A program made the position numbers and the translations under genes. 64,000 bases of DNA from an uncultured Candidatus Saccharibacteria bacterium. GTDB lineage: Bacteria > Patescibacteriota > Minisyncoccia > Phycocordibacterales > UBA918. Numbering within the stretch: the stretch's first letter is position 1; every line of letters starts with the position of its first letter. The stretch lies in assembly GCA_964643955.1 (NCBI GenBank), contig CAZXUO010000003.1, forward strand, positions 19,865-83,864, read 5' to 3'. This document shows, piece by piece, positions 10,328 to 37,535 of the stretch. The notes under the pieces were generated by a model that was not told where the DNA came from, ran no database searches, and saw nothing but the letters and a program-made list of their open reading frames with translations.

Positions 10328-12412
10328 ATGGAACTTTTTTCATACATGGGGCTGCACACAGCCTATCTATTTATCTTTTCGATTGGGCTAGCGCTTGGCA
10401 TTGGCGCGTCAGCTCTGAGTTACGCACTCTTTCTATTTGCAGGGCGAGACGGGCGCATATCGAAGGATGAGTTGGCTCTACTTTCGCTTTCTCGCAAGAC
10501 GGTATGGACTGCGTTTCTTTTGTATGGATTTAGTGGTATAGGGCTTTTCTCGCTCGCCTATGAATCAATGCTCTCTCTCGGCATCTTTTACGCAAGTATG
10601 ACGGTCGCGGCAATTCTTGTCGCGACCGAGCTTGCGTTTAGCTTCCGACATTTACCACGCGTACGGGATACGCGAGATGGAAGCGTGGCTCTTGATGCGT
10701 TCCTTCTCGAGAGCGGAGTCATCTCTGTCATTTCGTGGGTATTTCTTATGTTCCATCACGTAATCTATCGGACCGACATTGGCTATTTTGCGTTCATGGC
10801 TCTCTACACGGGCGCGCTTGCATTCGGGATGCTTGTTACGTGGGTAATCAGGCGCACGTCCATTCGTAGAAGCGATACGAAGATACTGAAGCGATCCATG
10901 ATTGCCGCGATTATGCTCGCGATCTGCTTTGGTGCCGCGTGGTTATTGGGTATCAGTACAATTGTCGATCCAGCGCAGATTGGAAAGGGTATCGTGCAGA
11001 ATGTAACTGGTACGAATTATACTGTTGACGACGTAGCACTCCACAACAACTCAGAGGACTGCTGGCTCATTATTGACGGCAAGGTATTCAATGCGACCGA
11101 GGCTTCAAAGCTGCACCCAGCCATGTTTGCGTGTGGTACTGATGTGAGCCTTAATTACCACAAGAATCACGGAGAGATTATTCGTGACAAGATGATGAAG
11201 TTCTATATCGGTGAACTTGGGGACGAGACCGGTGTTAAAAATGTTGACATTCCCTTTAAAAAACATGAGAACTTGAAGCCCTATCGCGAGCTGTATGCAA
11301 AGGAAGGTACGTGGGATCCCCATAATCTGATGCTCGTTGTTGAGAAAGATGAGGAAAAGCTCTTGGCGATAGATGGGTCGACGCATGAACTAGTCGGCCG
11401 GATCCATGAAGTTGGATTTCAGCCGCACACCTCGGTTTTCTCGTCGGATGCCGTATACATGTTCATCATCTCTCGCGACGGCTGGCTCACTAAGATCGAC
11501 CTTCGAACGCTCGAGCTGGTACGGACGGTGCATGTTGGGGAGAACTCGCGCGGCACCGCTCTTACGGATAATGACAAGTACGTCGCAATTGGAAACTACG
11601 CTCCGGGCAACCTGGTCATTCTCGACGCTGACACTATGGAGATGAAAAAGACTATACCCCTTGTCGAAGAGGTGAATGGAAAGGCCATTGAATCGCGCGC
11701 GGGCGCAGTCGTAGAGGATGGCAATCGCATTATCGTAGCACTAAAAGACGCTACGAGTGTCTGGGCGATTGATACAGACAATCCAGATTTCCCCGTCACA
11801 CATAAATTTAGAGACATTGGAGATAATGTCCCCGCACTGCACGATGCGTTTCTAACGCCAGGAGGATCGCACTACATAGTCGCCTCCCAAGGATCAAAGA
11901 CTGCATGGGTTCTCGATCTTGCGACTATGAAGCCGATTGCTGAAGTGGAGACTGGAGAGACGCCGCACACGGGTCCTGGAGCCGCGTGGGGTAACTACAT
12001 CTACATTCCTTCGCTTGGAGAAGGTCTCATCACCGTCATTGATACGACTACCTGGAAGACAGCCAAGTACATAAAGACAGGTGGCCCGGGGTTATTTGTG
12101 CGCAGCTACAGCAAGGATCCGTCGTATCCGTATGTATGGGCAGATACAGCATTTGGCGACCGCAAGGATGAGATATACGTTATCGATGGGCGAGTGAATG
12201 AGATAGTAAAGACCATCATTCCCGTGAAGGGAGAGAGCTCATGGCACCCAGAATTTACGTACGATGGAAAATTCGTGTACGTTGTCTCACCTTCGGCAAA
12301 TGAAGTTGAAGTATATGATGCGTACACGTTTGAGTTGATAAAACGCATTCCATCACAGATGCCATCAGCTATATCGAATGTGGGCCTTCGTATTGAGGAG
12401 CCGGGACTCTAA
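10328..12412 (+). CDS. Membrane-anchored cytochrome b5-like / cd1-nitrite-reductase-type (NirS/NirN/NirF-like) d1 beta-propeller fusion protein
   Basis: ~215-aa N-terminal multi-TM region. Then a cyt-b5-like heme domain ('LHNNSEDCWLIIDGKVFNATEASKLHPAMFACG', both axial His positions present). Then ~390 aa that align by eye to the NirS d1 domain ('FIISRDGWLTKIDL', 'YVAIGNYAPGNLVILDADTME', 'ETGETPHTGPGAAWGNYIY', 'GGPGLFVRSYSKDPSYPYVWADTAF'). Extended −10 TGTTACAAT lies 9 nt before the ATG. Confidence 0.6.
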   Translation: MELFSYMGLHTAYLFIFSIGLALGIGASALSYALFLFAGRDGRISKDELALLSLSRKTVWTAFLLYGFSGIGLFSLAYESMLSLGIFYASMTVAAILVATELAFSFRHLPRVRDTRDGSVALDAFLLESGVISVISWVFLMFHHVIYRTDIGYFAFMALYTGALAFGMLVTWVIRRTSIRRSDTKILKRSMIAAIMLAICFGAAWLLGISTIVDPAQIGKGIVQNVTGTNYTVDDVALHNNSEDCWLIIDGKVFNATEASKLHPAMFACGTDVSLNYHKNHGEIIRDKMMKFYIGELGDETGVKNVDIPFKKHENLKPYRELYAKEGTWDPHNLMLVVEKDEEKLLAIDGSTHELVGRIHEVGFQPHTSVFSSDAVYMFIISRDGWLTKIDLRTLELVRTVHVGENSRGTALTDNDKYVAIGNYAPGNLVILDADTMEMKKTIPLVEEVNGKAIESRAGAVVEDGNRIIVALKDATSVWAIDTDNPDFPVTHKFRDIGDNVPALHDAFLTPGGSHYIVASQGSKTAWVLDLATMKPIAEVETGETPHTGPGAAWGNYIYIPSLGEGLITVIDTTTWKTAKYIKTGGPGLFVRSYSKDPSYPYVWADTAFGDRKDEIYVIDGRVNEIVKTIIPVKGESSWHPEFTYDGKFVYVVSPSANEVEVYDAYTFELIKRIPSQMPSAISNVGLRIEEPGL

Positions 12413-13757: not shown

Positions 13758-13898
13758 TGTCCAGAATCAGCATTCGGAGTCTCCAGGTACTATTCCGAAA
13801 ATCGCATACCCGGTGAGTCCAGTATCCAGACAGAAAAACCACCTGCATGGGTGGTTTTTCTGTCCCGCTTGCGAATCCCTAACAGGGGGCGTCCTGTA

Positions 13899-14429
13899 CT
13901 AACAGGTTCTGCTAACGACACGCTGCGCGCCTGCACGCTTCTGCAACATGGCGAACACCCACTCAAATACTCCCAGAAGAGAAGCTGCGTAAAATAAGTC
14001 CCCGATAAACATATTTCTTAGAAACGGCAGACCGGCGACATAGGAAGCGATAAGGCCTTCAAGCGTCGGCGGATACCACGAAGAAGCAGCCCATACGGCA
14101 AAGTTCGTCACGAGGAAGAAGAGTATGGAGGAAGCCATGACAAGAAGCATGACCGTCGCGGGTCGCGTTCCTCGGGCGAGGATACCCACACCGCCAATCA
14201 CTGCAATGGATCCGTAGACGCTTAAGAGCACCTTCCAATCGTAGAATCCGATGACCAAATCTGCAGCGACCATTACGATAAGAGGAATGGCGATGGCCCA
14301 TAGAGGCCCGACATATTTTCCCGCAGCAAATGCGATTGCGGTCACGGGGGTTGTGTTAGGTGGGTGCGGCGCAAGCCGTCCGAGAAGGCCGACCCCTATA
14401 AGTCCTAGAATAGAGAGGAATGTCTTCAT
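13899..14429 (-). CDS. Small multi-TM membrane protein, putative ECF-type S-component (CbrT-like); start taken at the internal Met (MKTFLSIL)
   Basis: ~176 aa with 5–6 TM, the size and topology of an ECF S-component. Abuts the DUF4430 gene with a 1-nt spacer. The tool's longer ORF (to 14513) would overlap the upstream gene. Confidence 0.45.
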   Translation of the reverse strand: MKTFLSILGLIGVGLLGRLAPHPPNTTPVTAIAFAAGKYVGPLWAIAIPLIVMVAADLVIGFYDWKVLLSVYGSIAVIGGVGILARGTRPATVMLLVMASSILFFLVTNFAVWAASSWYPPTLEGLIASYVAGLPFLRNMFIGDLFYAASLLGVFEWVFAMLQKRAGAQRVVSRTC

Positions 14430-14430
14430 A

Positions 14431-15072
14431 CTAGAATCCCTTGAATTCCCAGACCACTGCCTTTCCGTCTGTAAGTTCGTACTGGTCTGCCCCGACCATC
14501 GGCGTTTCTCCATCCACCTGATACTGCCAGTAGTTCCCGTCGGTACCGTTTACAAGTCCGCCCATCGCGGTCACCAATATCCCCATATCTCCGTAGTCCT
14601 CGGTCGCAAGGTCAAGGTCCGGGTCAGTTGCATCGAGGCGTGTCAGAAGTTCAAGCACAGTTTCGCCGCTCTCGATTGGCGTGGTCGTTGCTTCGTATAC
14701 GCCTTCGATGGTGAGTGTTACGGTGTCGACCTCCTCTTCTTCCGTTTCGGTTTCGTTCGTGTACGTATTGTTCGTGACGTAATACGTGCGCGAAGTACGT
14801 GAACTCTCGTTGGATGTTTGGGCTGGCGCAGACTCCGTTGTAGCAAGCGTAGAGGTAGCAATTATCACATTGACTGTGATGACTGGTGGTGCTAGTTGGG
14901 GGGACGAGTTCTCAATGATAATTGGAGCGGTTGAGGGCGTTGACGTTGAAGTTACAAACACTTGAATGGGTGGTGTCTGTACGTCCGCTCTCGTACCGTT
15001 GCCATAGGTGAAGAGAAGTCCCACGACAAGAGTGAAGACTGAGAATACTGCGAGCCATGTGTAATCTTTCAT
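14431..15072 (-). CDS. Membrane-anchored surface protein with C-terminal DUF4430 domain (transcobalamin-like B12-binding fold)
   Basis: N-terminal TM, Thr/Ser-rich linker, then 'ILVTAMGGLVNGTDGNYWQYQVDGETPMVGADQYELTDGKAVVWEF' typical of DUF4430. Confidence 0.6.
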   Translation of the reverse strand: MKDYTWLAVFSVFTLVVGLLFTYGNGTRADVQTPPIQVFVTSTSTPSTAPIIIENSSPQLAPPVITVNVIIATSTLATTESAPAQTSNESSRTSRTYYVTNNTYTNETETEEEEVDTVTLTIEGVYEATTTPIESGETVLELLTRLDATDPDLDLATEDYGDMGILVTAMGGLVNGTDGNYWQYQVDGETPMVGADQYELTDGKAVVWEFKGF

Positions 15073-15090
15073 AAAGAGTGCGCTAGGGTG

Positions 15091-15612
15091 CTAATAAGTA
15101 GGCGACTTCTCTGCGTTTCCGCTTGTCTGCGCATCACGCCGCGCAAGCGCATAGAAGAAACTTGAGAGCCGATTGAGGAATGCGTTGAGCTCGATTGAAT
15201 CTTCTAGGCGTGCCCGCACGACTGCGCGTTCGGTTCGCCGCGTCACGGTTCGGGCGAAATCAAAGAGGGCTGAAAGCATGGTCGCGCCAGGGACGACAAA
15301 TGATGTTGGCTTCTCTATGGTCGTTTCGATAGAGTCGATGACGGTCTCAAGTGCGTTTACATGCGTATTCGTCACTCGCATCGTCGAACCGGCAAGCTGC
15401 GCTTGCGCGATGAAAAGAACTTCCTGTACCTGCTCTAGTTCATCCGCAGTTTCCTTATGGTCTTCGCGTACATATGCTTTGCAGAGCCCGGTGAGTGAAT
15501 TGAGCTCGTCGATGCTACCTAAAGCTTCAAACAAGGGGTGGTCCTTCGAAACACGCTCCTTAGTTCCAAAGAGTCCTGATGTACCGTTATCTCCTTTGCG
15601 GGTGTACAACAT
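15091..15612 (-). CDS. ATP:cob(I)alamin adenosyltransferase, PduO type
   Basis: N-terminal 'MLYTRKGDNGTSGLFG' matches the PduO-type 'IYTRTGDxGxT' motif; 173 aa. Confidence 0.8.
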   Translation of the reverse strand: MLYTRKGDNGTSGLFGTKERVSKDHPLFEALGSIDELNSLTGLCKAYVREDHKETADELEQVQEVLFIAQAQLAGSTMRVTNTHVNALETVIDSIETTIEKPTSFVVPGATMLSALFDFARTVTRRTERAVVRARLEDSIELNAFLNRLSSFFYALARRDAQTSGNAEKSPTY

Positions 15613-15616
15613 ATTT

Positions 15617-17956
15617 TTACTGTGTTGCGGCTGCTTCTAACGATTCGACAGGTAGCGTCATATCGACCTCGCATGTACCGCCAGCACAGGCTAGCTCGCG
15701 CTTTTGTTCCGTTTCGTCCGCATGTTCATACACGAGTAACTTCGAGTAATCAACAGCAGGTATTTTTTTTGCCATTTCCTCGTACTGTTCTTTAGTAATC
15801 GTCTCGTACGGTGCAAGTCGATAGACATGATCGAAGCGCGGTAGGAACGAAAGCCCGCCGATGATATCCCAATTCTTTTGCACCCAGTCAACAACGCTAA
15901 TCCACTCATCTTCTCCGACTGATATCGTCGCAGATGGATTGTGCTCTGTGTAATTGAGTTTGACCGTTTTCCAGTATTCGAGTTGTTCGAGCGCTGAGAA
16001 GTCGTCCTTGAATCTAGCGTTTCCTGGAGACTCAATCGGGAATTCTAAGACAAAAGTCGTCGCGTTCTCTTCTGTCTGGCCGACTTCCGGATGGTAGGGA
16101 ACTCCTTGATCTTTCAGCATTTTGAATAGAGAGTCGGTTGCTGATATGCGCACGCGCCGAATGTAATATTTTGCATGACGCGGATGAATACCAGAAGAGC
16201 AGTTGAATGTTTGCGAGACTGTTCCCGAGGGTTTTACAGCAGTAACTGAGAGGGATGGCTTAATCCCAAAACGTTTCGCATACACCTCATTGGTTCTGAC
16301 AGCTATGTCGCGCATTGCCTGCATTGCCTCGGGATTGCGTGCTGTCTCGGAATCCCACTGTCCCGTTACGGAAACTCCTAAAAGACGTTCCTCTTCGCAA
16401 TGTTCCGTCCAATCCTTGGAGATGTAGTTAAAGCGTGACAAAGAAGACTGATATGTACCAAGAAGCGATGCCAACCGGGCCTTTCGCACCAAGCTCTCAA
16501 GAGTGTCATCTTCGCGAGCGATAATTTCCGATAGATTACAGAACTGTTTCGATTGCAGAATAATCTCGCCGCATGGGTTAGTGCCTATAGGCCCCTGCAC
16601 CACACCATCTTCGCCGATGAATCCAACACTTTTGAAATACTTTTCACGTCGCTTCGGTAATGTATTTGCAAGCGATCCACGATTAAAGATTCCTCGTTCA
16701 CCAGATCCGCTTTTCATCAGGGCGACCCACTCTTCCATGAGTTCATTACTCGTCGGTCTCGTTCCATACACAGCTGAATTGTTCGCAACAGAACGATGCG
16801 GTTCCGCGAGGAAGAACTGGCCCTTTTTTGCATCACGCATATCAACGTCATCGAGGTCGGAGAGGCTGATCATGGCAGTTCGCCGCACGCCTCCCGACAC
16901 AACGCACTCGCCGATTTTGCATACGATGTCGTGGACATCAATCGGGCGCAGTCGTCTGCCTTGTCGTCTCAATATCTTTTCGCGTGCAAAAGCGAGAAGC
17001 GACTGAAGCGGTTCCGGTCCGGATGCTTTGCCTCCCATTGTTTTCAAACGTGCACCTGCCGGACGAATAAGGGAAAAATCAAAATTTATATCATTTCCTG
17101 CGTACCAAGTTTTGAGTCCAAGTGTTAGCGCGTCGCACCATCCCTCTTTGGAATCTGCTACGGCATGGGTCGGTAACTTTTTCTTTTGAGACTGTTTCTG
17201 TATTTGAGGCAGCTGTTCTATATTCTGGCTTTCAACTGCGAACCCAACACCGCATCCTTGCATGGAAAGATACATAATCTCCGCGAAGTCTTGGAGAGCT
17301 GCCGGAGCAATAAATGTGCAGTTATAGGCGCAAGTATTACAGCGACGCGCAGGTTCGCCCGCAAACTGCATCAGGCGCATTGAAGGCATGACCTCTTGCT
17401 TGAGAATTGCTTCACGCACTTCTGTGTACTCTTCTTCAGAGAGCTTATCGCCAAGATTCTCGCGCATAAACGCTACATAACGATCCACCGTCTCAACCCA
17501 TGTCTCGCGTCGCTTTTCGGCATCAATCCAGCGAGCATACGTGCGCAGGTAGACAAATTCACCCAGAGGGTTTCCTGCAAAGTATTTTTTGCTTTCCGCA
17601 GTCAAAGCACGAACATGATCTGGCACTTCACCTATTTCAAACCGCTTCTCTGCGCGCTCAGCACGGTACAAAATATATGCCTTTGCTGATTTAAGAAAGC
17701 CAAGCATCATAAGTTCTGTTTCTACTTCGTCCTGCACACCTTCAACGGTAGGGACAAAGTGCTCGTCGGCGCGTTTCTTTGCTTCGAGTTTCTTTTCAAC
17801 TGCACGAGCAACCGTCTTCATGGCGCTTTCCTCAAATTCACCAACTGATCTCATTGCTTTACTGATTGCAACTGCGATCTTCTCCCTCTCAAAGGGAACA
17901 GTGGTACCATTTCGCTTTATAATGCAGGTAATTTTGGGGAAAGTGGTTTGCGACAT
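15617..17956 (-). CDS. nrdJ: Ribonucleotide reductase class II (adenosylcobalamin-dependent, NrdJ) with N-terminal ATP-cone
   Basis: ATP-cone 'IKRNGTTVPFEREKIAVAI', 'LRTYARW', active-site 'TNPCGEI', C-terminal Cys pair 'CAGGTCEVD'; 779 aa. Confidence 0.85.
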   Translation of the reverse strand: MSQTTFPKITCIIKRNGTTVPFEREKIAVAISKAMRSVGEFEESAMKTVARAVEKKLEAKKRADEHFVPTVEGVQDEVETELMMLGFLKSAKAYILYRAERAEKRFEIGEVPDHVRALTAESKKYFAGNPLGEFVYLRTYARWIDAEKRRETWVETVDRYVAFMRENLGDKLSEEEYTEVREAILKQEVMPSMRLMQFAGEPARRCNTCAYNCTFIAPAALQDFAEIMYLSMQGCGVGFAVESQNIEQLPQIQKQSQKKKLPTHAVADSKEGWCDALTLGLKTWYAGNDINFDFSLIRPAGARLKTMGGKASGPEPLQSLLAFAREKILRRQGRRLRPIDVHDIVCKIGECVVSGGVRRTAMISLSDLDDVDMRDAKKGQFFLAEPHRSVANNSAVYGTRPTSNELMEEWVALMKSGSGERGIFNRGSLANTLPKRREKYFKSVGFIGEDGVVQGPIGTNPCGEIILQSKQFCNLSEIIAREDDTLESLVRKARLASLLGTYQSSLSRFNYISKDWTEHCEEERLLGVSVTGQWDSETARNPEAMQAMRDIAVRTNEVYAKRFGIKPSLSVTAVKPSGTVSQTFNCSSGIHPRHAKYYIRRVRISATDSLFKMLKDQGVPYHPEVGQTEENATTFVLEFPIESPGNARFKDDFSALEQLEYWKTVKLNYTEHNPSATISVGEDEWISVVDWVQKNWDIIGGLSFLPRFDHVYRLAPYETITKEQYEEMAKKIPAVDYSKLLVYEHADETEQKRELACAGGTCEVDMTLPVESLEAAATQ

Positions 17957-18013
17957 ATCGATGAATACGTTATATTGATAATGGTCTATGTATTATAATA
18001 TAGATGAGTATCT
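17957..18013. promoter_or_regulatory. AT-rich divergent promoter region between nrdJ (−) and the arsR–nirK operon (+)
   Basis: 57 bp with a palindromic 'tattataata' usable as −10 in both directions. No Shine-Dalgarno on either side. Confidence 0.5.
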
Positions 18014-18385
18014 ATGAATAAGAAAAAGTTGGGGAAAACGAATACTATTAAGCAGGGCGACACGAAAAATTCGGGCCGTACATACCCTCGCCCGTCGTGG
18101 GTGCCTAAAACCGTTTTAGGCGAGGAAGAACTGTGCCCTGATTGCTTTAAGGTTGTCGGAGAGAGAAGCCGCTATAATCTTGTGTGTACGTTGGGTAAGA
18201 ATGCAGAGGGTATGACGGTTGGCGAATTGACTGAAACCATGAAGTTGCGTCAGCCTACGGTTACGCATCATTTGCAAGTTCTTCGTTCCGTCGATGCTGT
18301 TGAGATGGAACCGCGAGGTCGGGAACGTATTTACAAACTTAATCGAGGAGCGCACTGCTTCGAAGAGTGTAAAATCCCTTATTAA
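18014..18385 (+). CDS. ArsR/SmtB-family transcriptional regulator with extra Cys pairs (CPDC…HCFEEC)
   Basis: wHTH recognition helix 'LRQPTVTHHLQVLRSVDAV' (ArsR 'QPTVSHHL' signature). The stop lies 6 nt before the nirK start. Confidence 0.7.
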   Translation: MNKKKLGKTNTIKQGDTKNSGRTYPRPSWVPKTVLGEEELCPDCFKVVGERSRYNLVCTLGKNAEGMTVGELTETMKLRQPTVTHHLQVLRSVDAVEMEPRGRERIYKLNRGAHCFEECKIPY

Positions 18386-18391
18386 CATTCT

Positions 18392-19612
18392 ATGGAACTA
18401 TTTTCATATCTTTGGCAGTATCTAGTGGGGGGCTTCGGTCTTGTGATCGCGTACGGCTTCGCGGCGATATTTATTTTTCTTGTGTTGCGCCAGTTCCATT
18501 CATGGAAAATCACTACAGCACTTGTCGCTATTTTTATAGGTGCCTCGATTGCCTTTTATGTTCCAAACGGTATTCCTCATGCATTTGAATATCCTCTGGG
18601 ACTCCGCACCTTTGGACCTTCCGAAGGTCCCGTTCTGCCGCTTTCAAATGTATTTTCGTTCTTGAAGAATTTCAGCTCGTTTGAGCGTGTCGCGAATATT
18701 GCCCGCAATCCCGATGACGTACCAGGCACAGCCGTGCAGAGTGTAGACGGTATCGTTGAAATCAACCTGGTTGCAAAGGAGGTGGTCGGTGAGATGGCCG
18801 ATGGAGTGACGTTTAACTATTGGACATTTGATGGCACCGTTCCAGGCCCATTCTTGCGAGTGCGCGAAGGCGATACGATTCGTCTAACACTTACGAACGA
18901 TCCATCGAGTCTGCATCATCACTCAATCGATCTTCATGCAGTAACTGGTCCAGGAGGAGGAGCGGCCGCCACTATAGTCGCGCCTGGCGAAAGCAAAACG
19001 ATAACGTTCAAGGCTTTGAATCCTGGCATTTTCATTTATCACTGCGCACATCCGAATGTTGCAAATCACATGGCACATGGGATGTATGGATTAATTCTTG
19101 TTGAGCCAGAGGAAGGACTACCTCCCGCAGACAAAGAATTTTACCTTGTGCAAGGTGAATTCTACAGTTCAGGATCACTTGGCCGTAAAGGACTTCAACT
19201 CTTTGACGCCCAGGCGATGCTTGAAGGGAAGCCACAATACATCGTTTTCAACGGCAAAACCGGCGCACTTGTTGATAATATGAAAGCCGATGTGGGTGAC
19301 ACCGTTCGCCTATATATTGGTAATGGCGGAGTCAATCTTATCTCCAGCTTCCACGTGATTGGCGAGATTTTTGACCGCGTATACCGAGAGGGAGACCTAG
19401 TAACTCCTCCTGCACAGAGCGTGCAGACTACGTTAGTTCCAGCTGGAGGCGCTGCAATGGTTGAGTTTAAGGTTGATTACCCGGGTAATTACGTTCTTGT
19501 TGACCACGCACTCTCTCGACTTGATCGTGGCGCGTGGGGAGTCCTGCATGTTGAGGGAGAAGCAGACCCAATGATTTTCGATGGAGAGATACAGAGCGGT
19601 CACGGACATTAA
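18392..19612 (+). CDS. nirK: Copper-containing nitrite reductase NirK with N-terminal two-TM anchor
   Basis: 'HHHSIDLHAVTGPGGGAA…PGIFIYHCAHPNVANHMAHGMYGLILVEP' carries the type-1 and type-2 Cu ligand pattern (H-x4-H, HC, H, M). Two cupredoxin domains. N-terminus 'MELFSY…' is hydrophobic. Confidence 0.85.
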   Translation: MELFSYLWQYLVGGFGLVIAYGFAAIFIFLVLRQFHSWKITTALVAIFIGASIAFYVPNGIPHAFEYPLGLRTFGPSEGPVLPLSNVFSFLKNFSSFERVANIARNPDDVPGTAVQSVDGIVEINLVAKEVVGEMADGVTFNYWTFDGTVPGPFLRVREGDTIRLTLTNDPSSLHHHSIDLHAVTGPGGGAAATIVAPGESKTITFKALNPGIFIYHCAHPNVANHMAHGMYGLILVEPEEGLPPADKEFYLVQGEFYSSGSLGRKGLQLFDAQAMLEGKPQYIVFNGKTGALVDNMKADVGDTVRLYIGNGGVNLISSFHVIGEIFDRVYREGDLVTPPAQSVQTTLVPAGGAAMVEFKVDYPGNYVLVDHALSRLDRGAWGVLHVEGEADPMIFDGEIQSGHGH

Positions 19613-20226: not shown

Positions 20227-20454
20227 TTAATATTTAACGTTTTTAGCAAGAATTGTAATTTTAGATTTTAGGCACGCAAGTAAGTCTCGTAATGACCATA
20301 AAATTTTGGTTTATCGATAGGATGGTTGGCCTCGTGGAGAAGAGCTAGTATTGTTTCTGGACTAATGTTTGGCGTGGGTTGTCGCGTAATGTATAGAGTG
20401 GGGATGTAAAGCTCGCTTTACTCTCTCGAAGTACCTGCATATAATGAGCGGCGT

Positions 20455-20667
20455 ATGCAGGAGAAGATAAAGAATGCGGTGAGTAAGTACCGAATGCAAA
20501 TGGGCGTGACTCAAGAGGAGCTTGCTTCCAAAGTGAATGTAAGCCGCCAGACGATCATTGCTCTGGAGAAAGGGAATTACACACCATCAATCTTACTAGC
20601 GTTAAAAATTGCTGGTTTTTTTAAGATGCCTGTAGAAAAGCTCTTTAACATTTCATATGAGAAATAA
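20455..20667 (+). CDS. XRE-family (Cro/C1-type) HTH transcriptional regulator, YozG-like
   Basis: 'MGVTQEELASKVNVSRQTIIALEKGNYTPSILLALKIAGFF' is a classic XRE HTH; 70 aa. Confidence 0.75.
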   Translation: MQEKIKNAVSKYRMQMGVTQEELASKVNVSRQTIIALEKGNYTPSILLALKIAGFFKMPVEKLFNISYEK

Positions 20668-21129: not shown

Positions 21130-21630
21130 ATGAACAAGCTCACGGGAATCATTTTAGGAATCGTCATCATCATAATCATTGCAGGTGTTGCATATGCGTC
21201 GCTCATGCAGCGTGAGGACGAGATGGTCGATGCAAAGATGGAAGAGGCAGGCATGATGGATGAAAAGATGATGTCACCAGAAGACGAGAAGATGATGGCT
21301 GATGAAAAAGAGATGGCCGCGCCAGGAGTTTATGAATCGTATGCGCCCGAGAAGCTCGCGCGAGCAGAGACGGGCGACGTCGTGTTGTTCTTCCACGCAT
21401 CGTGGTGCCCTTCGTGCCGCGGACTCAATGCAGATATTGAGAAAAATCTCGATGCAATACCGTCTGGGGTAAATATCTTGAAGGTGGATTATGACTCAGA
21501 GACAGAGCTCAAGAAGAAGTACGGCATTACCTACCAGCACACACTCGTGCAGGTTGCGGCCGACGGCACGATGATTAATAAGTGGAGCGGCAGTCCAACG
21601 CTCAGTAGCGTAGTCTCAAACATCAATTAA
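21130..21630 (+). CDS. Membrane-anchored thioredoxin-like protein (TlpA/ResA-like, WCPSC active site) with a Met/Glu/Asp-rich linker
   Basis: TM helix 'LTGIILGIVIIIIIAGVAYA'. Linker 'MVDAKMEEAGMMDEKMMSPEDEKMMADEKEMAAP' has 11 Met in 34 aa. Thioredoxin fold with 'FHASWCPSCRG'. Confidence 0.7.
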   Translation: MNKLTGIILGIVIIIIIAGVAYASLMQREDEMVDAKMEEAGMMDEKMMSPEDEKMMADEKEMAAPGVYESYAPEKLARAETGDVVLFFHASWCPSCRGLNADIEKNLDAIPSGVNILKVDYDSETELKKKYGITYQHTLVQVAADGTMINKWSGSPTLSSVVSNIN

Positions 21631-23445
21631 ATGATTTTTTTCGGCATCTCAGTACTCGCAGGTATCTTCACCGTCGTTGCGCCTTGTATATTGCCGCTTC
21701 TCCCGGTGGTGATGGGCGCATCAGAGACGGGTGATCGGCATGTTGGGAAGCGGGCGCTCATCGTCATTGGTGCGCTCTCGCTCTCGGTCATCATCTTCAC
21801 GCTTTTACTCAAAGCAACAACCCTCCTCATTGGTATTCCGCAAGTATTCTGGAGTTGGTTTTCTGGTAGTATCATCATCGCCGTAGGGTTTGCGATCACG
21901 TTTCCTTCATGGTGGGCGCGCGTGCCATACATTAATAAAGTGAGTGTACTCAGCAATCAGGCGGTCGGTGCGGGATATCAGAAGAAAAGTTATACCGGTG
22001 ATGCGCTGATGGGACTTGCGCTCGGTCCAGTTTTTACCACGTGCTCACCGACATACCTCTTCATTATTGCGACCGCGCTCCCTGCGACGTTTGCAACCGG
22101 CCTTTTGTATCTCTTCGGCTTCACGTTTGGGCTTGCTCTCTCACTTCTTGTGATTGCGTATTTTGGACAAACGCTCATCAATGCGTTGAATGCGCGCATG
22201 GATACTGCCGGAAGGGCGAAGCAAGTATTCGGGATTCTCATCATCGTGGTCGGGGTTTTGATCGTGACTGGTTTTGATAAAAAGATAGAGGCGTACATCC
22301 TCGATTCCGGCTATGGCGCGACGATACAATTAGAAAATAAACTCATCGAGCAATTTGCTCCCACATCTATGTCGACAAAAGAAGCACGCACGAGTGGTGG
22401 TGCCTACGAAACGATCACGCTCGCAGGAGGTTGTTTCTGGTGTACCGAGGCGTACTTTCAAGAACAAGAGGGAGTCATTGATGCAGTGTCGGGATATGCA
22501 GGTGGAGACGAATCGACTGCGTCGTATCTCGTGGTTGCGCAAGGTACGACGAAGCATCGAGAGGCAGTACAGGTGACGTACGACCCAGAAATTATTTCTA
22601 CTGAAAAGATTCTCGATATTTATTGGTCACACATCGATCCGACAAATACGGTCGGACAGTTTGCTGATGAGGGTTTCCAGTACACAAGCGCAATCTTTTA
22701 TCACACCGATGAGCAGCATGCGGTTGCGCATGATTCCAAGAATCGACTTGAAGTGAGTGGTCTCTTTGATAAACCAATTGCAACTGAAATTCTTCCGTTC
22801 AGTACTTTCTTTAAGGCGGAGGAGTATCATCAGGACTATTATAAGAAGGCGTCCGATCATTATGAGCGGTACAAGGAAGCGTCGGGTCGCGCTGGATTTG
22901 TCGAGGAGACGTGGGCGAAAGATGCAGCTATTCAATTTTTAGAATCGGAAGAAACAAAAACTATGAACACAAACGAGTCGTCGAAGAGTGACAACAAGTA
23001 CGAGTATACCGATGAGGAAATTGCAGAAAAGTTAAAAAACCTTGATCCACTTGCGTATCATGTGGTTGCTGAAAATGGTACCGAGTCACCATTTAATAAC
23101 GCCTACTGGGATAATAAGGCGGACGGCATCTATGTGGACATCGTGACAGGTAAGCCGCTGTTTTCGAGCACGCATAAGTATGACTCGGGTACCGGCTGGC
23201 CAAGTTTCTGGAGGACTATCGATGATGATTCGGTGACGATGCATGAAGATAATTCGCTTTCAACGACCCGCACCGAAATACGAACTGAGGCAGGGCATGT
23301 CGGGCATGTGTTTGAGGATGGGCCCGCAGAAGAAGGGGGAAGGAGATTTTGTACCAACTCCGCATCACTTCGGTTTGTACCAAAAGCGGACATGGAAAGA
23401 GAAGGATATGGTCAGTACCTGTATCTCTTCACGGAATCAGTTTAG
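21631..23445 (+). CDS. msrAB: CcdA-MsrA-MsrB tri-domain fusion (membrane thiol-disulfide transporter fused to both methionine sulfoxide reductases)
   Basis: N-terminal ~230-aa CcdA/DsbD-type domain with Cys in TM helices ('VVAPCILPLLP', 'FTTCSPTYLF'). MsrA motif 'LAGGCFWCTE'. MsrB domain 'GTGWPSF…HVGHVFEDGP…RFCTNSASLRF'. Start ATG overlaps the upstream stop (TAAATGA). Confidence 0.85.
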   Translation: MIFFGISVLAGIFTVVAPCILPLLPVVMGASETGDRHVGKRALIVIGALSLSVIIFTLLLKATTLLIGIPQVFWSWFSGSIIIAVGFAITFPSWWARVPYINKVSVLSNQAVGAGYQKKSYTGDALMGLALGPVFTTCSPTYLFIIATALPATFATGLLYLFGFTFGLALSLLVIAYFGQTLINALNARMDTAGRAKQVFGILIIVVGVLIVTGFDKKIEAYILDSGYGATIQLENKLIEQFAPTSMSTKEARTSGGAYETITLAGGCFWCTEAYFQEQEGVIDAVSGYAGGDESTASYLVVAQGTTKHREAVQVTYDPEIISTEKILDIYWSHIDPTNTVGQFADEGFQYTSAIFYHTDEQHAVAHDSKNRLEVSGLFDKPIATEILPFSTFFKAEEYHQDYYKKASDHYERYKEASGRAGFVEETWAKDAAIQFLESEETKTMNTNESSKSDNKYEYTDEEIAEKLKNLDPLAYHVVAENGTESPFNNAYWDNKADGIYVDIVTGKPLFSSTHKYDSGTGWPSFWRTIDDDSVTMHEDNSLSTTRTEIRTEAGHVGHVFEDGPAEEGGRRFCTNSASLRFVPKADMEREGYGQYLYLFTESV

Positions 23446-33000: not shown

Positions 33001-33438
33001 ATGGAGGATTATTTTTTAGTGAATGAAGCGAAGGTGGTGAGTCAGACTCTTGAGGGAGAGGCGATCGTGATCAATCTCGAAAAAGGAAACTACTACAGTT
33101 TCAACGTGACTGGCTCAGAAATATGGGACCTCATGGTTGCTGGGCATGCGCTGCATGCCATCGAGCAATATATCTCTGATCGGTACAATGTCTCACTTGA
33201 GCAGGCAGAGGAGGATGTGCGCGCGTTTGTGACGTCTTTGGAACAGGAGGATCTCGTCACACGTACAGAGAAAGGTGAGACAGCGCATTCTGCGCCGACA
33301 GTGACAAAAGCAACAGAACAATTCGTACGCCCTTCGTTTGAACGATACGACGATATGCAAGAAATGCTGCTCGCCGATCCAATCCACGATGTGGGCGAGG
33401 CTGGGTGGCCTGTTCTCAAAAAAGAAGAAGCGGTATGA
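33001..33438 (+). CDS. PqqD-family RiPP-recognition-element (peptide chaperone) protein with a ~55-aa C-terminal extension
   Basis: 'VSQTLEGEAIVINLEKGNYYSFNVTGSEIWDLMVAGHALHAIEQYISDRYNVSLEQAEEDVRAFVTSLEQEDLV' fits the PqqD/RRE profile. The stop overlaps the next start (ATGA). Confidence 0.7.
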   Translation: MEDYFLVNEAKVVSQTLEGEAIVINLEKGNYYSFNVTGSEIWDLMVAGHALHAIEQYISDRYNVSLEQAEEDVRAFVTSLEQEDLVTRTEKGETAHSAPTVTKATEQFVRPSFERYDDMQEMLLADPIHDVGEAGWPVLKKEEAV

Positions 33439-34094
33439 GTGATCTACCACGCATCTCTGTAGTCACTCCGGTATTTAACGGAGTCAGGTACATTGAAGCA
33501 ACCGTCCACTCAGTGCTCGAACAGGGGTATCCCAACCTCGAGTACATTCTCGTTGATGATGGTTCAACTGATGCGACTCGTGAAGTCCTTGCACAATTTG
33601 GCGACGCTGTGCGTGTGATTGTTCAGAAAAATACAGGACATGTCATTGCTCGAAACGTAGGGCTGCGCGCTGCAACAGGAAGCATAATCTCGTTTATTGA
33701 TCAGGATGATGTGTGGCCGCATGGTCGGCTCGAGAAAATGCTCCCGTTCATAATGAGTGGGGAATACGATTATGTTCGAGGGAAGACACTTTTGTTTGGA
33801 GATTATATTGAAAAAGATCTACCGATTCATCGTTATCCGATCATTGGCGCGTGTCTGTATCGAAGTGAGATATTTCAAAGTATCGGTCTTTTTGATGAAG
33901 GGATGGATGCGGGAGAGGATTTCGACTGGAATGTTCGTCTGGGAGAATCAACATTTCGCGAAAAACGGATTGACGATGTGACGCTCTTGTACCGCCAGCA
34001 TGATACAAATCTGTCTCACACGGATGGTTTTCTTGCGCGCGGACAGTTTGATACGCTCCGGAAAAAATTGAAGCGCGCACGTACACACATATAA
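33435..34094 (+). CDS. Family 2 glycosyltransferase
   Basis: 'ISVVTPVFNGVRYIEATVHSVLEQGYPNLEYILVDDGSTD' and a 'DQDD' DxD motif. Confidence 0.8.
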   Translation: MSDLPRISVVTPVFNGVRYIEATVHSVLEQGYPNLEYILVDDGSTDATREVLAQFGDAVRVIVQKNTGHVIARNVGLRAATGSIISFIDQDDVWPHGRLEKMLPFIMSGEYDYVRGKTLLFGDYIEKDLPIHRYPIIGACLYRSEIFQSIGLFDEGMDAGEDFDWNVRLGESTFREKRIDDVTLLYRQHDTNLSHTDGFLARGQFDTLRKKLKRARTHI

Positions 34095-34107
34095 CTATCC
34101 AGCAGCC

Positions 34108-35178
34108 ATGAACTCGCAATTACCAACTAGAAACTTTCTCGGAATTTCTGCATCATATTTTGAAAAAGAATTTTTGCCAACATTCACGAGAGTGTCTGCA
34201 CGCACGTCGCCGCAGGAGGTCCAGTACGAGATTGCAGGAGTGAAGATATCTTTGCGATTTTTTTGCGAGCAACTTGCAGAGCGGCTCATGCCGGCATTCG
34301 CTCATTTGCCGAAATTCTCGGGGGCGCCGGACATTGTTGTTAATCTTGTAGACGGATCGATCATGCCGCTTATGCCTCCGTGGTCGCGCGCAGATTTTTT
34401 ACAAAGTGGTGCAGATGTTTCTCTAAACCGTTCTTCATTTCGCGGAGTGTACATAAGTGGGGAGGAATCTTTGAACTTCTATGATGCTGAATCCAGAGTT
34501 GCGTATTTTTGGACAAATGACGTTGGTGCACTGCCGGGTTGGGTTGTTGGCGCGCCGCTTCGAGCAATTTTGCATTGGGTGTTATCTTCTCGAGATATAC
34601 AACTAGTCCACGCGGCTGCAGTCGGACGTGGTGATGAGACGGTGCTTTTAACGGCGAAGAGTGGGTCGGGAAAATCAACAACAGCTCTCTCGTGCGTACT
34701 CTCAGGCATGACTTACTTGGGGGATGATTATGTCGGAGTCACTGCGGGTGCGAATGATTTGGTGGCACATAGCTTGTATGATTCAGCGAAGATGACTCCG
34801 AACACGCAAAAGATGTTTCCTGAGTATGCAGAAGGTGTTGTCACGGTCCCGTCAGTAGATGATCGGAAATCAGTCGTGTACCTCTCTCAGATTTTTCCTG
34901 AACGAGTACGAACGGTATCCAGTGTGCGCGCTATTTTAATACCGAGTATTGATTCTGCCGCGGAAGCGTCGTTTCTCATTCCCGCACGAAAGCATGAAGC
35001 ACTTCGTGCGCTTGCTCCGACCGTGCTTTTTCAGCTGCCCGGGGCAGGCACTATGCTCCTCGGTCGACTCGCTGAAATCGTTTCGTGCGTGCCGTCGTAC
35101 CATCTGCGACTCGGCTCTGATGTGCGCGCAATCCCGAGCGTGATCGATACTGTTTTTTCTTACCATCGCTCGATATGA
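34108..35178 (+). CDS. HPr-kinase-related P-loop kinase (HprK C-terminal-domain-like; 'HprK-related kinase A'-type)
   Basis: 'VLLTAKSGSGKSTTALSCVLSGMTYLGDDYV' parallels the HprK/P P-loop plus 'ADD' segment. The N-terminal ~200 aa are unrelated to HprK. The stop overlaps the ABC start. Confidence 0.6.
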   Translation: MNSQLPTRNFLGISASYFEKEFLPTFTRVSARTSPQEVQYEIAGVKISLRFFCEQLAERLMPAFAHLPKFSGAPDIVVNLVDGSIMPLMPPWSRADFLQSGADVSLNRSSFRGVYISGEESLNFYDAESRVAYFWTNDVGALPGWVVGAPLRAILHWVLSSRDIQLVHAAAVGRGDETVLLTAKSGSGKSTTALSCVLSGMTYLGDDYVGVTAGANDLVAHSLYDSAKMTPNTQKMFPEYAEGVVTVPSVDDRKSVVYLSQIFPERVRTVSSVRAILIPSIDSAAEASFLIPARKHEALRALAPTVLFQLPGAGTMLLGRLAEIVSCVPSYHLRLGSDVRAIPSVIDTVFSYHRSI

Positions 35179-36842
35179 GTGCAACGTTTCAAAACTTGAG
35201 AGGATTTTATACACAATATTTTGCAAAGCATACGCGGCGCTTTGGTGTGAGTCTCATGCTCGCTATTGTTCAAGCGTTACTACTCGTACCTATTCCGTTT
35301 TTAGTACATGCGCTGTTTAAAACACTTTCGACGCACGGAGAAGTACGTTCACTCTTCCTCATCCTCGGGTCCATTATTTGTTTGATTATAGGTGCAGCTA
35401 CTGCTGCGATAATGAATCGCCGCATAACACTTTCTCTCATTAAAGAATCTGTTGGGGATTTGCGCGCTCATCTTGTAGAGCAGACGCTTGCACGCTCTCG
35501 CGCTGAGTACGCAACACTTGAAGTTGATGCGATTCACTCCGACATCGTGTACGGTACCGAGCGGATTGATTGCATGATGAGTGCGCTTTTCACACAGGTG
35601 GTACCTGGCATTCTGGTTGGTCTCGGAATCGGTATCGTCCTCCTCTACCTCAGTCCGCTCCTCACGCTCGTTGTCGTGCTCTCACTCCCAATTCTGTATG
35701 TGTGCGCACGGGCGTTCGGGAGACGGGTGCAGATACTTGTGAAGAAATTTCATGGTGACTTCTCAACTTTTAGTGAAAAGATTTCTTTCGTTACTCATTT
35801 TCATGAGCTTATAAAAATATCAGGGTCAGAGAGATTTGAATTGTCGCAGCAGCGACGATCGATACAAGATCTACGTTTTTCAAGTAGCGCGATGGCATTC
35901 TTTTCGACGATCCATACGATCATGCAGGGGAACGTGATGGTGCTCGTCGGTGTGATTGTGCTACTCGTGGGTGGTATACAGATTATCTCTGGCACGATGA
36001 CGCTCGGTGTAGTCCTCTCATTTTATATTGCACTAAGTGTGCTGATATCGCATATGCGCGTCGCGGTTGGAGCGCTCCCGACAGTCTTGGAGGGCTGGGA
36101 ATCTCTTCACGCACTCAGTGTGCATCTCGGATGGACGCCGACACTCTCGTCGGGTGGTCGTAACATCGATTCGATTACCCGTATCGATATGGAAGATGTT
36201 TCGTTTGGTTATGGGGATGAGCGTATGCTGCAGGGCGTCAGTCTGACGCTCACGCACGGTGAAATGATCGGGCTGTACGGCCCTTCGGGCTCAGGCAAAT
36301 CAACACTTGCGAGCCTGCTTTCGGGTCTTTATCAACCGCAGTCAGGCAGGGTGAGTTTCAATGGAGTTGATCTTCAGGATATTAATCCCGAGAGCTATCG
36401 GTCACGTATTGGAATGCTCACACAAGGATTATTGATCTTCTCGGGTTCAATCCGAGACAATCTTACCTACGGCATTGCGGATGTTTCTGATGATCTCTTG
36501 CGAGAAGTTTGTACGATGTGTGGGATACAAGAATATATTGATGCGCTGCCGGAGGGATATGATACACCGGTCGGTGCGAACGGCACGCAGCTTTCGGGTG
36601 GACAGCGGCAGCGTGTAGCACTTGCTCGTGCGCTCGTTCGGCAGCCCGATATACTGATACTTGATGAGCCCGATAATAATCTCGATCAGATGATGATCGA
36701 GAGCATACTTACTCACATCCACCAAAAGAAGATCACTACACTCGTGATCACACACAATCGATCATTGGCGCATCATTTTGATCGGGTTTACGAATGTACA
36801 AAAGTAGGCGGCGTGACTTTAGTGCGTGAGCAGAAAATATAA
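35175..36842 (+). CDS. ABC exporter, fused TMD-NBD (MsbA/lasso-peptide-D-like)
   Basis: Six-TM N-terminal domain, Walker A 'GPSGSGKST', signature 'LSGGQRQRVALARAL', Walker B 'ILILDEP'. Confidence 0.85.
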   Translation: MSATFQNLRGFYTQYFAKHTRRFGVSLMLAIVQALLLVPIPFLVHALFKTLSTHGEVRSLFLILGSIICLIIGAATAAIMNRRITLSLIKESVGDLRAHLVEQTLARSRAEYATLEVDAIHSDIVYGTERIDCMMSALFTQVVPGILVGLGIGIVLLYLSPLLTLVVVLSLPILYVCARAFGRRVQILVKKFHGDFSTFSEKISFVTHFHELIKISGSERFELSQQRRSIQDLRFSSSAMAFFSTIHTIMQGNVMVLVGVIVLLVGGIQIISGTMTLGVVLSFYIALSVLISHMRVAVGALPTVLEGWESLHALSVHLGWTPTLSSGGRNIDSITRIDMEDVSFGYGDERMLQGVSLTLTHGEMIGLYGPSGSGKSTLASLLSGLYQPQSGRVSFNGVDLQDINPESYRSRIGMLTQGLLIFSGSIRDNLTYGIADVSDDLLREVCTMCGIQEYIDALPEGYDTPVGANGTQLSGGQRQRVALARALVRQPDILILDEPDNNLDQMMIESILTHIHQKKITTLVITHNRSLAHHFDRVYECTKVGGVTLVREQKI

Positions 36843-36844
36843 AT

Positions 36845-37531
36845 ATGGATACGACTGGTCTCGTGAGTGTCATTGTGCCTGCATATAACGCTGAGCGTTA
36901 TATAGGTGAGGCGCTTGAAAGTGTCTTTGCTCAGTCATACCAATATATGGAGGTAATCTGTGTGAATGACGGATCGACTGACAAGACGGGCGAGATCATT
37001 CGTTCGTACGGTGATCGAGTCGTATTTATCGATCAAGAAAAAAATAGTGGCATAGCGACGACTCGGAATGTTGCGCTACGACACGCTCGCGGCGCGTGGA
37101 TTGCTCTCATGGATGCAGATGATGTATGGGAGCCAGAGAAATTGCAGCTACAACACGCCTATGCAGATGGTCATCCGGACGTCGGTATTATTTTTACACA
37201 CGCGCAATGCTTCATCAGTCCTGATCTTCCGCCTGAAGTTCGAAGACTTCGACATTGTCCAGTTGAACCTTTGCCGGGGTTGCTTGCTGCATCTGCTTTT
37301 ATAAAAAAAGAACTTTTTGATACGGTCGGTTTTTTTGATGAGCGTTGGAGAGTAGGGGAATTTATCGATTGGTTTTCGCGAGCCCAGAGTATGGGAATTG
37401 AACATAAAGTGCTTGATGAAGTACTCTTGCGTCGTCGTATACATGATACGAACACGGGCGTCGAGAAGCGTCCTGAACGCGTCGACTATGTTGGTATTGT
37501 GCGTGAAGCTTTGAAGCGTCGGAGGGTATAG
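36845..37531 (+). CDS. Family 2 glycosyltransferase (second copy)
   Basis: 'VSVIVPAYNAERYIGEALESVFAQSYQYMEVICVNDGSTD' and 'DADD'. Confidence 0.8.
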   Translation: MDTTGLVSVIVPAYNAERYIGEALESVFAQSYQYMEVICVNDGSTDKTGEIIRSYGDRVVFIDQEKNSGIATTRNVALRHARGAWIALMDADDVWEPEKLQLQHAYADGHPDVGIIFTHAQCFISPDLPPEVRRLRHCPVEPLPGLLAASAFIKKELFDTVGFFDERWRVGEFIDWFSRAQSMGIEHKVLDEVLLRRRIHDTNTGVEKRPERVDYVGIVREALKRRRV

Positions 37532-37535
37532 AAGT

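Follow-up and report, generated by a model that had tools for sequence, protein, structure and literature searches.

A nrdJ-pduO-DUF4430-DUF6580 operon in a Patescibacterium with a probable role in cobamide scavenging for DNA precursor synthesis

How does a bacterium with a reduced genome secure vitamin B12 for an enzyme that makes its DNA precursors? Patescibacteria are extremely abundant, mostly uncultured organisms with reduced genomes that rely on other organisms for cofactors. We were interested in four adjacent genes at positions 13899-17956 of a 64-kb stretch of contig CAZXUO010000003.1 (the window) from an uncultured Candidatus Saccharibacteria bacterium, encoding a class II ribonucleotide reductase (NrdJ), a PduO-type adenosyltransferase, a DUF4430 protein and a small DUF6580 membrane protein. 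An earlier reading of the same DNA (the original prediction) had proposed that these genes couple B12 scavenging directly to DNA precursor synthesis. Our analysis supports this interpretation, each of the functional assignments having held up, and the four genes probably constitute one operon that scavenges external cobamide for deoxyribonucleotide synthesis. A literature search returned nothing relevant on Patescibacteria together with cobalamin, adenosyltransferase or energy-coupling factor (ECF) transporters.

In the scheme that we propose, an N-terminal helix and a long Thr/Ser/Pro-rich stalk would tether the DUF4430 protein to the outside of the membrane, where its transcobalamin-beta-like domain would bind a corrinoid. 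The DUF4430 protein would pass the corrinoid to the DUF6580 protein, which would carry it across the membrane, and PduO would adenosylate the reduced corrinoid to adenosylcobalamin (AdoCbl). The RTPR-like NrdJ would then use AdoCbl to reduce ribonucleotides, its ATP-cone presumably conferring allosteric (ATP/dATP) control. From the observed gene content and order, the families and folds, the conserved linkage, the riboswitch control of homologous operons and the fusions, we infer corrinoid binding by DUF4430 and DUF6580, the hand-over and the direction of transport; for DUF4430, it is the riboswitches, fusions and linkage that suggest binding. Judging from this operon, DNA precursor synthesis in a large group of Patescibacteria would depend entirely on B12 obtained from neighbouring organisms, and the genes of the likely uptake route can now be named. 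The kind of module is known from Lactobacillus; the novel part is the putative DUF6580 transporter family with its transcobalamin-like partners, which contributes one more candidate to the still incomplete catalogue of bacterial B12 importers and points to bacterial relatives of both human B12-carrier domains acting beside a membrane transporter. Identifying B12 transport systems in the numerous genomes of gut microbes is an open problem (PMC6593275).

Gene anatomy and the two enzymes

The features of the locus, from the upstream spacer to the downstream hairpin, are as follows.

17957-18013, no strand assigned: AT-rich divergent intergenic region of 57 bp between nrdJ and an ArsR-family gene, presumed promoter region
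15617-17956, minus strand: nrdJ, RTPR-like class II ribonucleotide reductase, 779 aa (Pfam, TIGR02505, PDB match)
15091-15612, minus strand: PduO-type ATP:cob(I)alamin adenosyltransferase, 173 aa (PF01923, TIGR00636)
14431-15072, minus strand: CbrS-like DUF4430 protein, candidate for cobamide capture, 213 aa (PF14478, profile and fold)
13899-14429, minus strand: DUF6580 membrane protein, candidate cobamide translocator with the S-component fold, 176 aa (PF20221, fold)
13830-13863, minus strand: hairpin with a 14-bp stem, probable operon terminator (RNA fold)

The listing of open reading frames (ORFs) over the 11-21 kb region shows four co-directional minus-strand ORFs in the order nrdJ-pduO-DUF4430-DUF6580, exactly where the original prediction had placed its tightly spaced genes, with intergenic gaps of 4, 18 and 1 nt. 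As far as sequence can tell, the gene anatomy is that of a single operon. The longest possible DUF6580 ORF spans 13899-14513, and a start at 14513 would overlap the neighbouring gene by 83 nt. An identical 176-aa protein is already on record, and the family alignment begins at the ATG at 14429 (MKTFLS...). Because the homologues begin there, we placed the start at this codon, which yields the length of about 176 residues expected from the earlier reading. A purine-rich AAGGGA lies just 5' of this ATG, which is located 1 nt past the preceding stop codon.

The hairpin at 13830-13863, 36 nt 3' of the DUF6580 stop codon, has a folding energy of -28.3 kcal/mol and a z-score of -6.05 against shuffled sequences. 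A consensus terminator scan left it unflagged, because the U-run falls within the stem; in the consensus promoter and terminator scan, the sites were fewer than in shuffled controls. The sole promoter-like match near the 5' end of nrdJ was found on the plus strand (17948-17976), and a search of the window against Rfam, at gathering and at permissive thresholds, returned no riboswitch. The 57-bp spacer between nrdJ and the ArsR-family gene holds a possible operator in the form of the imperfect palindrome TCTATAT-N6-ACATAGA.

NrdJ comprises the Pfam domains ATP-cone, RNR_Alpha, Ribonuc_red_lgC (part of the barrel) and RNR-II_ins_dom, with the ATP-cone at the N-terminus (residues 12-102, nt 17651-17923). 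The class II insertion domain, PF21995, scored 28.6 bits (cutoff 27), and the best match in the PDB is the RTPR from L. leichmannii (1L1L, E = 1.3e-48). Cysteines in the NPCGE, CNL, NC(T/W)FIA and C-terminal CxGGxC (C-x4-C) motifs align with those of RTPR and are conserved in NrdJ; we take them to be the thiyl-radical, redox-pair and re-reduction cysteines. Against the RTPR equivalog model TIGR02505, the protein narrowly missed the cutoff (314 versus 340 bits), being divergent and carrying the extra ATP-cone. The PDB match, the retained cysteines and the insertion domain bear out the original assignment as a class II AdoCbl-dependent reductase, and the sequence identifies it as RTPR-like, i.e., of the monomeric type. 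The predicted PduO-type adenosyltransferase was likewise confirmed with both curated hidden Markov models (HMMs), PF01923 (150 bits, cutoff 24, residues 2-158) and TIGR00636 (133 bits, cutoff 108).

The DUF4430 protein and the DUF6580 membrane protein

The DUF4430 domain occupies residues 136-211 (nt 14440-14667) and matches PF14478 with 45.4 bits (cutoff 23.8); the original prediction had given a wrong accession, PF15461. As read from the sequence, the protein also has an N-terminal membrane anchor, a hydrophobic helix (nt 15004-15057), and a stalk of ~100 residues rich in Thr, Ser, Pro and Glu (nt 14698-15003). The DUF4430 family is known as the C-terminal domain of TCN proteins (PMC4350170). 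A single-sequence phmmer search of the protein against the PDB gave nothing useful. We built a profile from 38 DUF4430 proteins adjoining DUF6580 or CbrT, which matched haptocorrin (4KKI, 8e-8) and intrinsic factor (1.8e-7) as well as the DUF4430 structure from Ruminococcus gnavus (3U7Z, 1.2e-4) and the isolated beta domain of transcobalamin (TC2, 2.5e-3). The top 19 Foldseek matches of the AlphaFold2 (AF2) model of the window domain are 3U7Z and the beta-domain region of haptocorrin, intrinsic factor and transcobalamin, with template-modeling (TM) scores of 0.62-0.76. The transcobalamin-like fold claimed earlier for DUF4430 was thus recovered by profile and by predicted structure, both of which identify the domain as transcobalamin-beta-like. 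BtuH, a surface binder of Bacteroides, was considered as a precedent for DUF4430 and rejected, as the BtuH paper names neither DUF families nor transcobalamin. Going by the title alone of a paper on DUF4465 B12-binding domains, BtuH-type binders may be DUF4465 proteins.

The small membrane protein had been described as ECF S-component-like, with PF12822 as the family to be checked. It did not match PF12822, PF07155 or similar S-component families in the Pfam scan; the single Pfam family returned was PF20221 (DUF6580, 141 bits), and the NCBIfam scan was empty. NCBI labels the members of this family "DUF6580 family putative transport protein", and within the literature searched DUF6580 is named in no paper. 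The AF2 model shows six helices with a mean predicted local distance difference test score (pLDDT) of 91 and a predicted TM score (pTM) of 0.82. The top 17 Foldseek matches in the PDB are all of the ECF S-component type (BtuM, ThiT, FolT, PanT, RibU and 4huq_S), with TM scores of 0.52-0.63 save for one at 0.42, and the leading matches are two structures of BtuM with cobalamin (TM score 0.59, probability 1.0).

A single-sequence phmmer search of the DUF6580 protein against the PDB returned nothing. The family profile had a sole match in the PDB, CbrT (6FNP_A, E = 5.7e-4, 78 columns), which is the CbrT subunit of a vitamin B12 ECF transporter (PMC5997447). The aligned stretch spans the "PN..P" motif of loop 1 and the "GF..W" motif of loop 3, and hhalign of DUF6580 against CbrT-like sequences gave a probability of 78% (E = 1.8e-5, 61 columns). 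A CbrT fragment matches PF12822 and PF07155 and not PF20221. The profile comparisons and the model therefore set DUF6580 apart as a separate S-component-fold family, probably a distant relative of CbrT and not a CbrT member. The S-component likeness of the original prediction stands as to fold and probable distant kinship, and its family assignment does not; nor did the protein turn out to belong to a non-transporter family.

Conservation was read from an alignment of 35 sequences. The invariant residues are located in loop 1 (R18, P21, H22, N25), at the end of helix 3 and in loop 3 (D57, G61-F62-Y63), in helix 5 (T108, N109, W113), and in or around the last two predicted helices (G125-L126, P135-F136, G143).

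Conserved neighbourhood of DUF6580

DUF6580 is a large family, with 6,270 clusters at 50% identity in an exhaustive profile search, and at least 566 species turned out to have the gene in a scan of species-representative genomes. All of the best homologues belong to Patescibacteria/Paceibacterota, which places the window in that group. We counted neighbours with HMMs in the best 80 species-level loci, mostly from Patescibacteria.

DUF4430 near DUF6580: 69 of 80 loci
DUF4430 directly upstream of DUF6580: 60 of 80 loci
Transcobalamin-alpha-like secreted protein near DUF6580: 25 of 80 loci
Adenosyltransferase of any type near DUF6580: 36 of 80 loci
PduO-type adenosyltransferase near DUF6580: 23 of 80 loci
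CobA/BtuR-type adenosyltransferase near DUF6580: 13 of 80 loci
Class II reductase of any type near DUF6580: 39 of 80 loci
RTPR-like reductase near DUF6580: 20 of 80 loci
Dimeric NrdJ near DUF6580: 19 of 80 loci
DUF4430, adenosyltransferase and class II reductase all near DUF6580: 30 of 80 loci
At least one of these links (DUF4430, transcobalamin-alpha-like protein, adenosyltransferase, reductase): 71 of 80 loci

The four-gene operon recurs together with the divergent ArsR/NirK-like pair in relatives whose DUF6580 proteins are 78% and 51% identical to that of the window. Other relatives carry DUF6580 with a dimeric NrdJ and NrdR, or with PduO or DUF4430, and one has DUF4430 alone. These data bear on whether the four co-directional genes might be unrelated and merely adjacent. 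That neither a riboswitch nor an operon promoter was identified would fit such a chance arrangement, which the gaps of 1-18 nt, the one strong hairpin after the last gene, an order kept at about 50% protein identity and the 30 loci combining all three partners make extremely improbable; the synteny counts effectively refute it.

The type of adenosyltransferase tracks that of the reductase. In the related loci L010-L089, PduO occurs mostly with an RTPR-like NrdJ bearing an ATP-cone, and CobA/BtuR mostly with a dimeric NrdJ, often with NrdR upstream; the CobA type was borne out by Pfam (PF02572, 204 bits). Since non-homologous enzymes of the same role interchange around a constant DUF4430-DUF6580 core, we consider the arrangement to be a functional B12 module, which provides the DUF6580 family with a specific and testable functional prediction.

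Large secreted proteins encoded next to DUF6580 match the alpha domain PF01122 or a prenyltransferase-like alpha-alpha toroid (L012 3167-5005, L029 1999-4719, L045 2801-4606). Some of these secreted proteins from Patescibacteria hold DUF4430 in the same chain and thus both transcobalamin domains. The parallel with the eukaryotic carriers transcobalamin, intrinsic factor and haptocorrin extends accordingly from the C-terminal beta domain, which DUF4430 matches including the conserved "YW" motif, to the toroidal alpha domain (PF01122) encoded beside DUF4430 and DUF6580 in related Patescibacteria. The window protein differs from these carriers in having the beta domain only, tethered by a transmembrane helix and stalk, and its ligand would go to a membrane translocator instead of an endocytic receptor.

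B12-class riboswitches were detected in 9 of the 43 related loci scanned, in 7 of them directly upstream of the operon. Four loci of the Patescibacteria type have an AdoCbl riboswitch directly 5' of a DUF4430-(transcobalamin-alpha-like)-DUF6580 row (L029 1313-1436, L033 2936-3094, L050 2176-2317, L082 2895-3034), and a fifth has a cobalamin riboswitch 3' of nrdJ, just before a second DUF4430-DUF6580 pair (L044 5010-5188). The Ignavibacteria locus L070 has a cobalamin riboswitch ahead of genes for a TonB-dependent receptor, a PP-loop protein, a BtuF-like protein and DUF6580; in one Bacteroidota locus (L073) the order is cobalamin riboswitch, TonB receptor, DUF6580, and in another (L075) the riboswitch is located just 3' of DUF6580, ahead of a TonB receptor. 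The ninth is in a locus labelled Actinomycetes (L087). Five close Patescibacteria loci had no cobalamin riboswitch in the Rfam scan, and none of the nrdJ-containing operons scanned (the window, L002, L004, L006, L008 and the Lactobacillus-type L090) is headed by one. The lack of a riboswitch in front of nrdJ operons makes sense, because a B12-repressed switch would silence a B12-dependent enzyme of the same transcript when its cofactor is present.

The PP-loop gene of the Ignavibacteria operon (L070 4240-4932) matches "Diphthami_syn_2" (PF01902). An ORF adjoining DUF6580 in a locus labelled Rhizomicrobium (L055 5159-5950) has the same SWSGGKD motif, and judging from these neighbourhoods a B12-related role of the PP-loop gene is possible. 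Some labels "uncultured Gammaproteobacteria" in the genome collection may be unreliable, as the gene contexts resemble those of Patescibacteria.

Gene fusions were also found. In one protein (P0175, 337 aa), DUF6580 is joined through an extra transmembrane helix to DUF4430, and in another (P0168, 1062 aa) it is followed by an extra transmembrane helix, an alpha-alpha toroid, a peptidoglycan-binding domain (PG_binding) and Ig-like domains. The C-terminus of S-components is generally cytoplasmic. Provided that this holds for DUF6580, the fused binder domain would lie outside the cell because of the extra helix, and this topology would match the one predicted from the sequence of the N-terminally anchored DUF4430 protein of the window.

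Might DUF4430 and DUF6580 instead handle cobalt, cobinamide only, a lower-ligand base or an unrelated nutrient, or might DUF6580 be a receptor or anchor? The PDB entry of the bacterial DUF4430 structure 3U7Z bears the label "putative metal binding protein", some DUF6580 operons include a PP-loop enzyme with no assigned role, and ECF-CbrT transports cobinamide too (PMC5997447). We nevertheless regard this alternative as improbable: the linked enzymes, two types of adenosyltransferase and two types of AdoCbl-dependent reductase, act on or need the complete corrinoid, the linkage extends to transcobalamin alpha- and beta-like domains and to AdoCbl/cobalamin riboswitches, and the window contains no corrinoid-remodelling genes (cobS/T/U, cbiB).

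Mode of transport, related B12 systems and further genes of the window

Among known systems, the most similar one is the Lactobacillus nrdJ-cbrS-cbrT-pduO cluster, which is said to have been predicted by Rodionov in 2009. In L. delbrueckii this cluster goes with ECF-CbrT, whose structure was solved (PDB 6FNP; Santos et al., 2018, PMC5997447). Our search with an 81-aa CbrT fragment from 6FNP returned truncated CbrT-like proteins only, and the contigs compared here are Lactobacillus-type and not the L. delbrueckii locus itself. Contigs with a CbrT 69-75% identical to the fragment carry nrdJ, DUF4430 in one or two copies, CbrT and PduO. In these contigs the cbrS position is taken by a gene for a DUF4430 protein; the Lactobacillus and window modules therefore have the same four parts, i.e., an RTPR-type reductase, a DUF4430 protein, a membrane protein of the S-component fold and PduO. 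A riboswitch was found in neither, and DUF6580 shares with CbrT the motifs of loops 1 and 3. The two modules differ in the membrane protein (PF20221 here, PF12822 there) and in gene order (nrdJ-pduO-DUF4430-S-component here, nrdJ-DUF4430-S-component-pduO there). The window NrdJ, which carries the ATP-cone, is 27% identical to its counterpart, and the window PduO is 36% identical to that of the Lactobacillus-type nrdJ-DUF4430-cbrT-pduO cluster. We rejected a recent horizontal transfer from Lactobacillales because of these low identities. The host is also different, a Patescibacterium, and no ECF module is encoded within the window.

The second point of comparison is BtuM from Thiobacillus denitrificans, a solitary S-component-like B12 transporter that co-localises with btuB in organisms without ECF modules (PMC6072759). 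BtuM (PDB 8C7P/8OVV) is the best structural match of DUF6580, likewise a small membrane protein of the S-component fold, and DUF6580 is similarly found in riboswitch-btuB operons of Ignavibacteria and Bacteroidota. In contrast to this structural likeness, no similarity to BtuM was detectable by profile at E<=10, and the cobalt-ligating cysteine of BtuM has no counterpart in DUF6580, whose invariant residues include His22, Asn25 and Asp57. A dedicated DUF4430 partner is not part of the description of BtuM, either. By analogy with BtuB-BtuF-BtuCD, an external binding protein would feed a membrane translocator, and in L070 DUF6580 and a BtuF-like protein share an operon behind the cobalamin riboswitch. 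Unlike that system, neither the window nor the DUF6580 operons examined encode BtuC or BtuD homologues, and both fold and binder are unrelated. The window also has no cob/cbi genes and no BtuCDF.

These comparisons lead to the question of what drives transport. We somewhat favour an ECF-independent mode like that of BtuM, in which the tethered binding protein would supply DUF6580. The broader proposal, which we make tentatively and hold at somewhat below even chances, is that DUF6580 represents a third S-component-type family of cobamide transporters after CbrT and BtuM, independent of ECF modules and fed by a membrane-tethered transcobalamin-like binder with the beta domain alone or with alpha and beta domains, and that the bacterial alpha/beta proteins are prokaryotic relatives of the eukaryotic carriers.

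Within the same B12 module, DUF6580 could also be an ordinary group-II S-component that docks, like CbrT, on a shared EcfA/A'/T module encoded elsewhere. Genes for group-II S-components usually lie apart from those for the ECF module, and the missing A/T genes near DUF6580 would then be expected. Such dependence would agree with the fold, which equals that of the ECF-dependent ThiT, FolT, RibU and PanT, and with CbrT as the only sequence relative in the PDB; when the E. coli ΔFEC strain was to be complemented, solitary CbrT lacking the ECF module gave no B12-dependent growth (PMC5997447). On the other hand, the 64-kb window contains no CbiQ/EcfT and no paired EcfA genes, its only ABC ATPases being FtsE and an exporter, and neighbourhood clustering found no recurrent ABC-type neighbour around DUF6580 in the related loci. 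The riboswitch-btuB(-btuF) operons of Ignavibacteria and Bacteroidota place DUF6580 at the spot expected for btuCD, as with BtuM (PMC6072759), and tight pairing or fusion with a dedicated binder is unusual for S-components, which bind their substrate themselves. Taken together, ECF dependence of DUF6580 appears to us the less likely of the two modes.

A number of findings weigh against the tethered-binder, ECF-independent scheme that we prefer. Because the closest sequence relative, CbrT, fails without its ECF module, an ECF-independent mode is not the default expectation, and the window has neither an ECF module nor a cobalt-reducing partner nor a riboswitch. The likeness of DUF6580 to CbrT is weak in E-value, aligned length and hhalign probability alike, the Foldseek E-values of the DUF6580 model are modest (about 1e-2), and BtuM is absent among the PDB matches of the DUF6580 profile at E<=10. 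No cysteine is found among the invariant columns of DUF6580, the only cysteine of the window protein being its non-conserved C-terminal residue. As for the binder, the AF2 model of the window DUF4430 domain is of moderate confidence (pLDDT 72, five aligned sequences), its alignment being shallow because just 4 proteins came from a word-indexed search for homologues of the isolated domain, and the literature that could be searched contained no bacterial DUF4430 protein proven to bind B12.

Several other genes of the window and its relatives caught our attention. Divergent from nrdJ, at 18014-19612 (plus strand), are the genes for an ArsR-family regulator and, after it, a NirK-like copper oxidase with two domains and a membrane anchor, and the arrangement of ArsR, copper oxidase and nrdJ is common to roughly 10 related loci. 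On the other side of the operon, the 694-aa product of 10328-12412 (plus strand) combines several membrane helices at the N-terminus with a cytochrome b5-like domain and a beta-propeller of the cytochrome d1 (NirS) type (PF02239, 230 bits); such a cytochrome d1-type protein is unexpected in a Patescibacterium. A membrane-anchored thioredoxin and a DsbD_TM-MsrA-MsrB fusion at 21130-23445 (plus strand) look, by their domains, like a unit for extracytoplasmic methionine-sulfoxide repair. The row at 33001-38741 (plus strand), comprising a PqqD-like protein, two family-2 glycosyltransferases, an unassigned 356-aa ORF, a fused ABC exporter and an NTP_transf_5 nucleotidyltransferase, is possibly, from its gene content, a peptide-modification and export cluster. 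Finally, the 608-kb contig of a close relative (L002) contains a group I intron (RF00028, 65.7 bits) at 20359-20609 on the minus strand.

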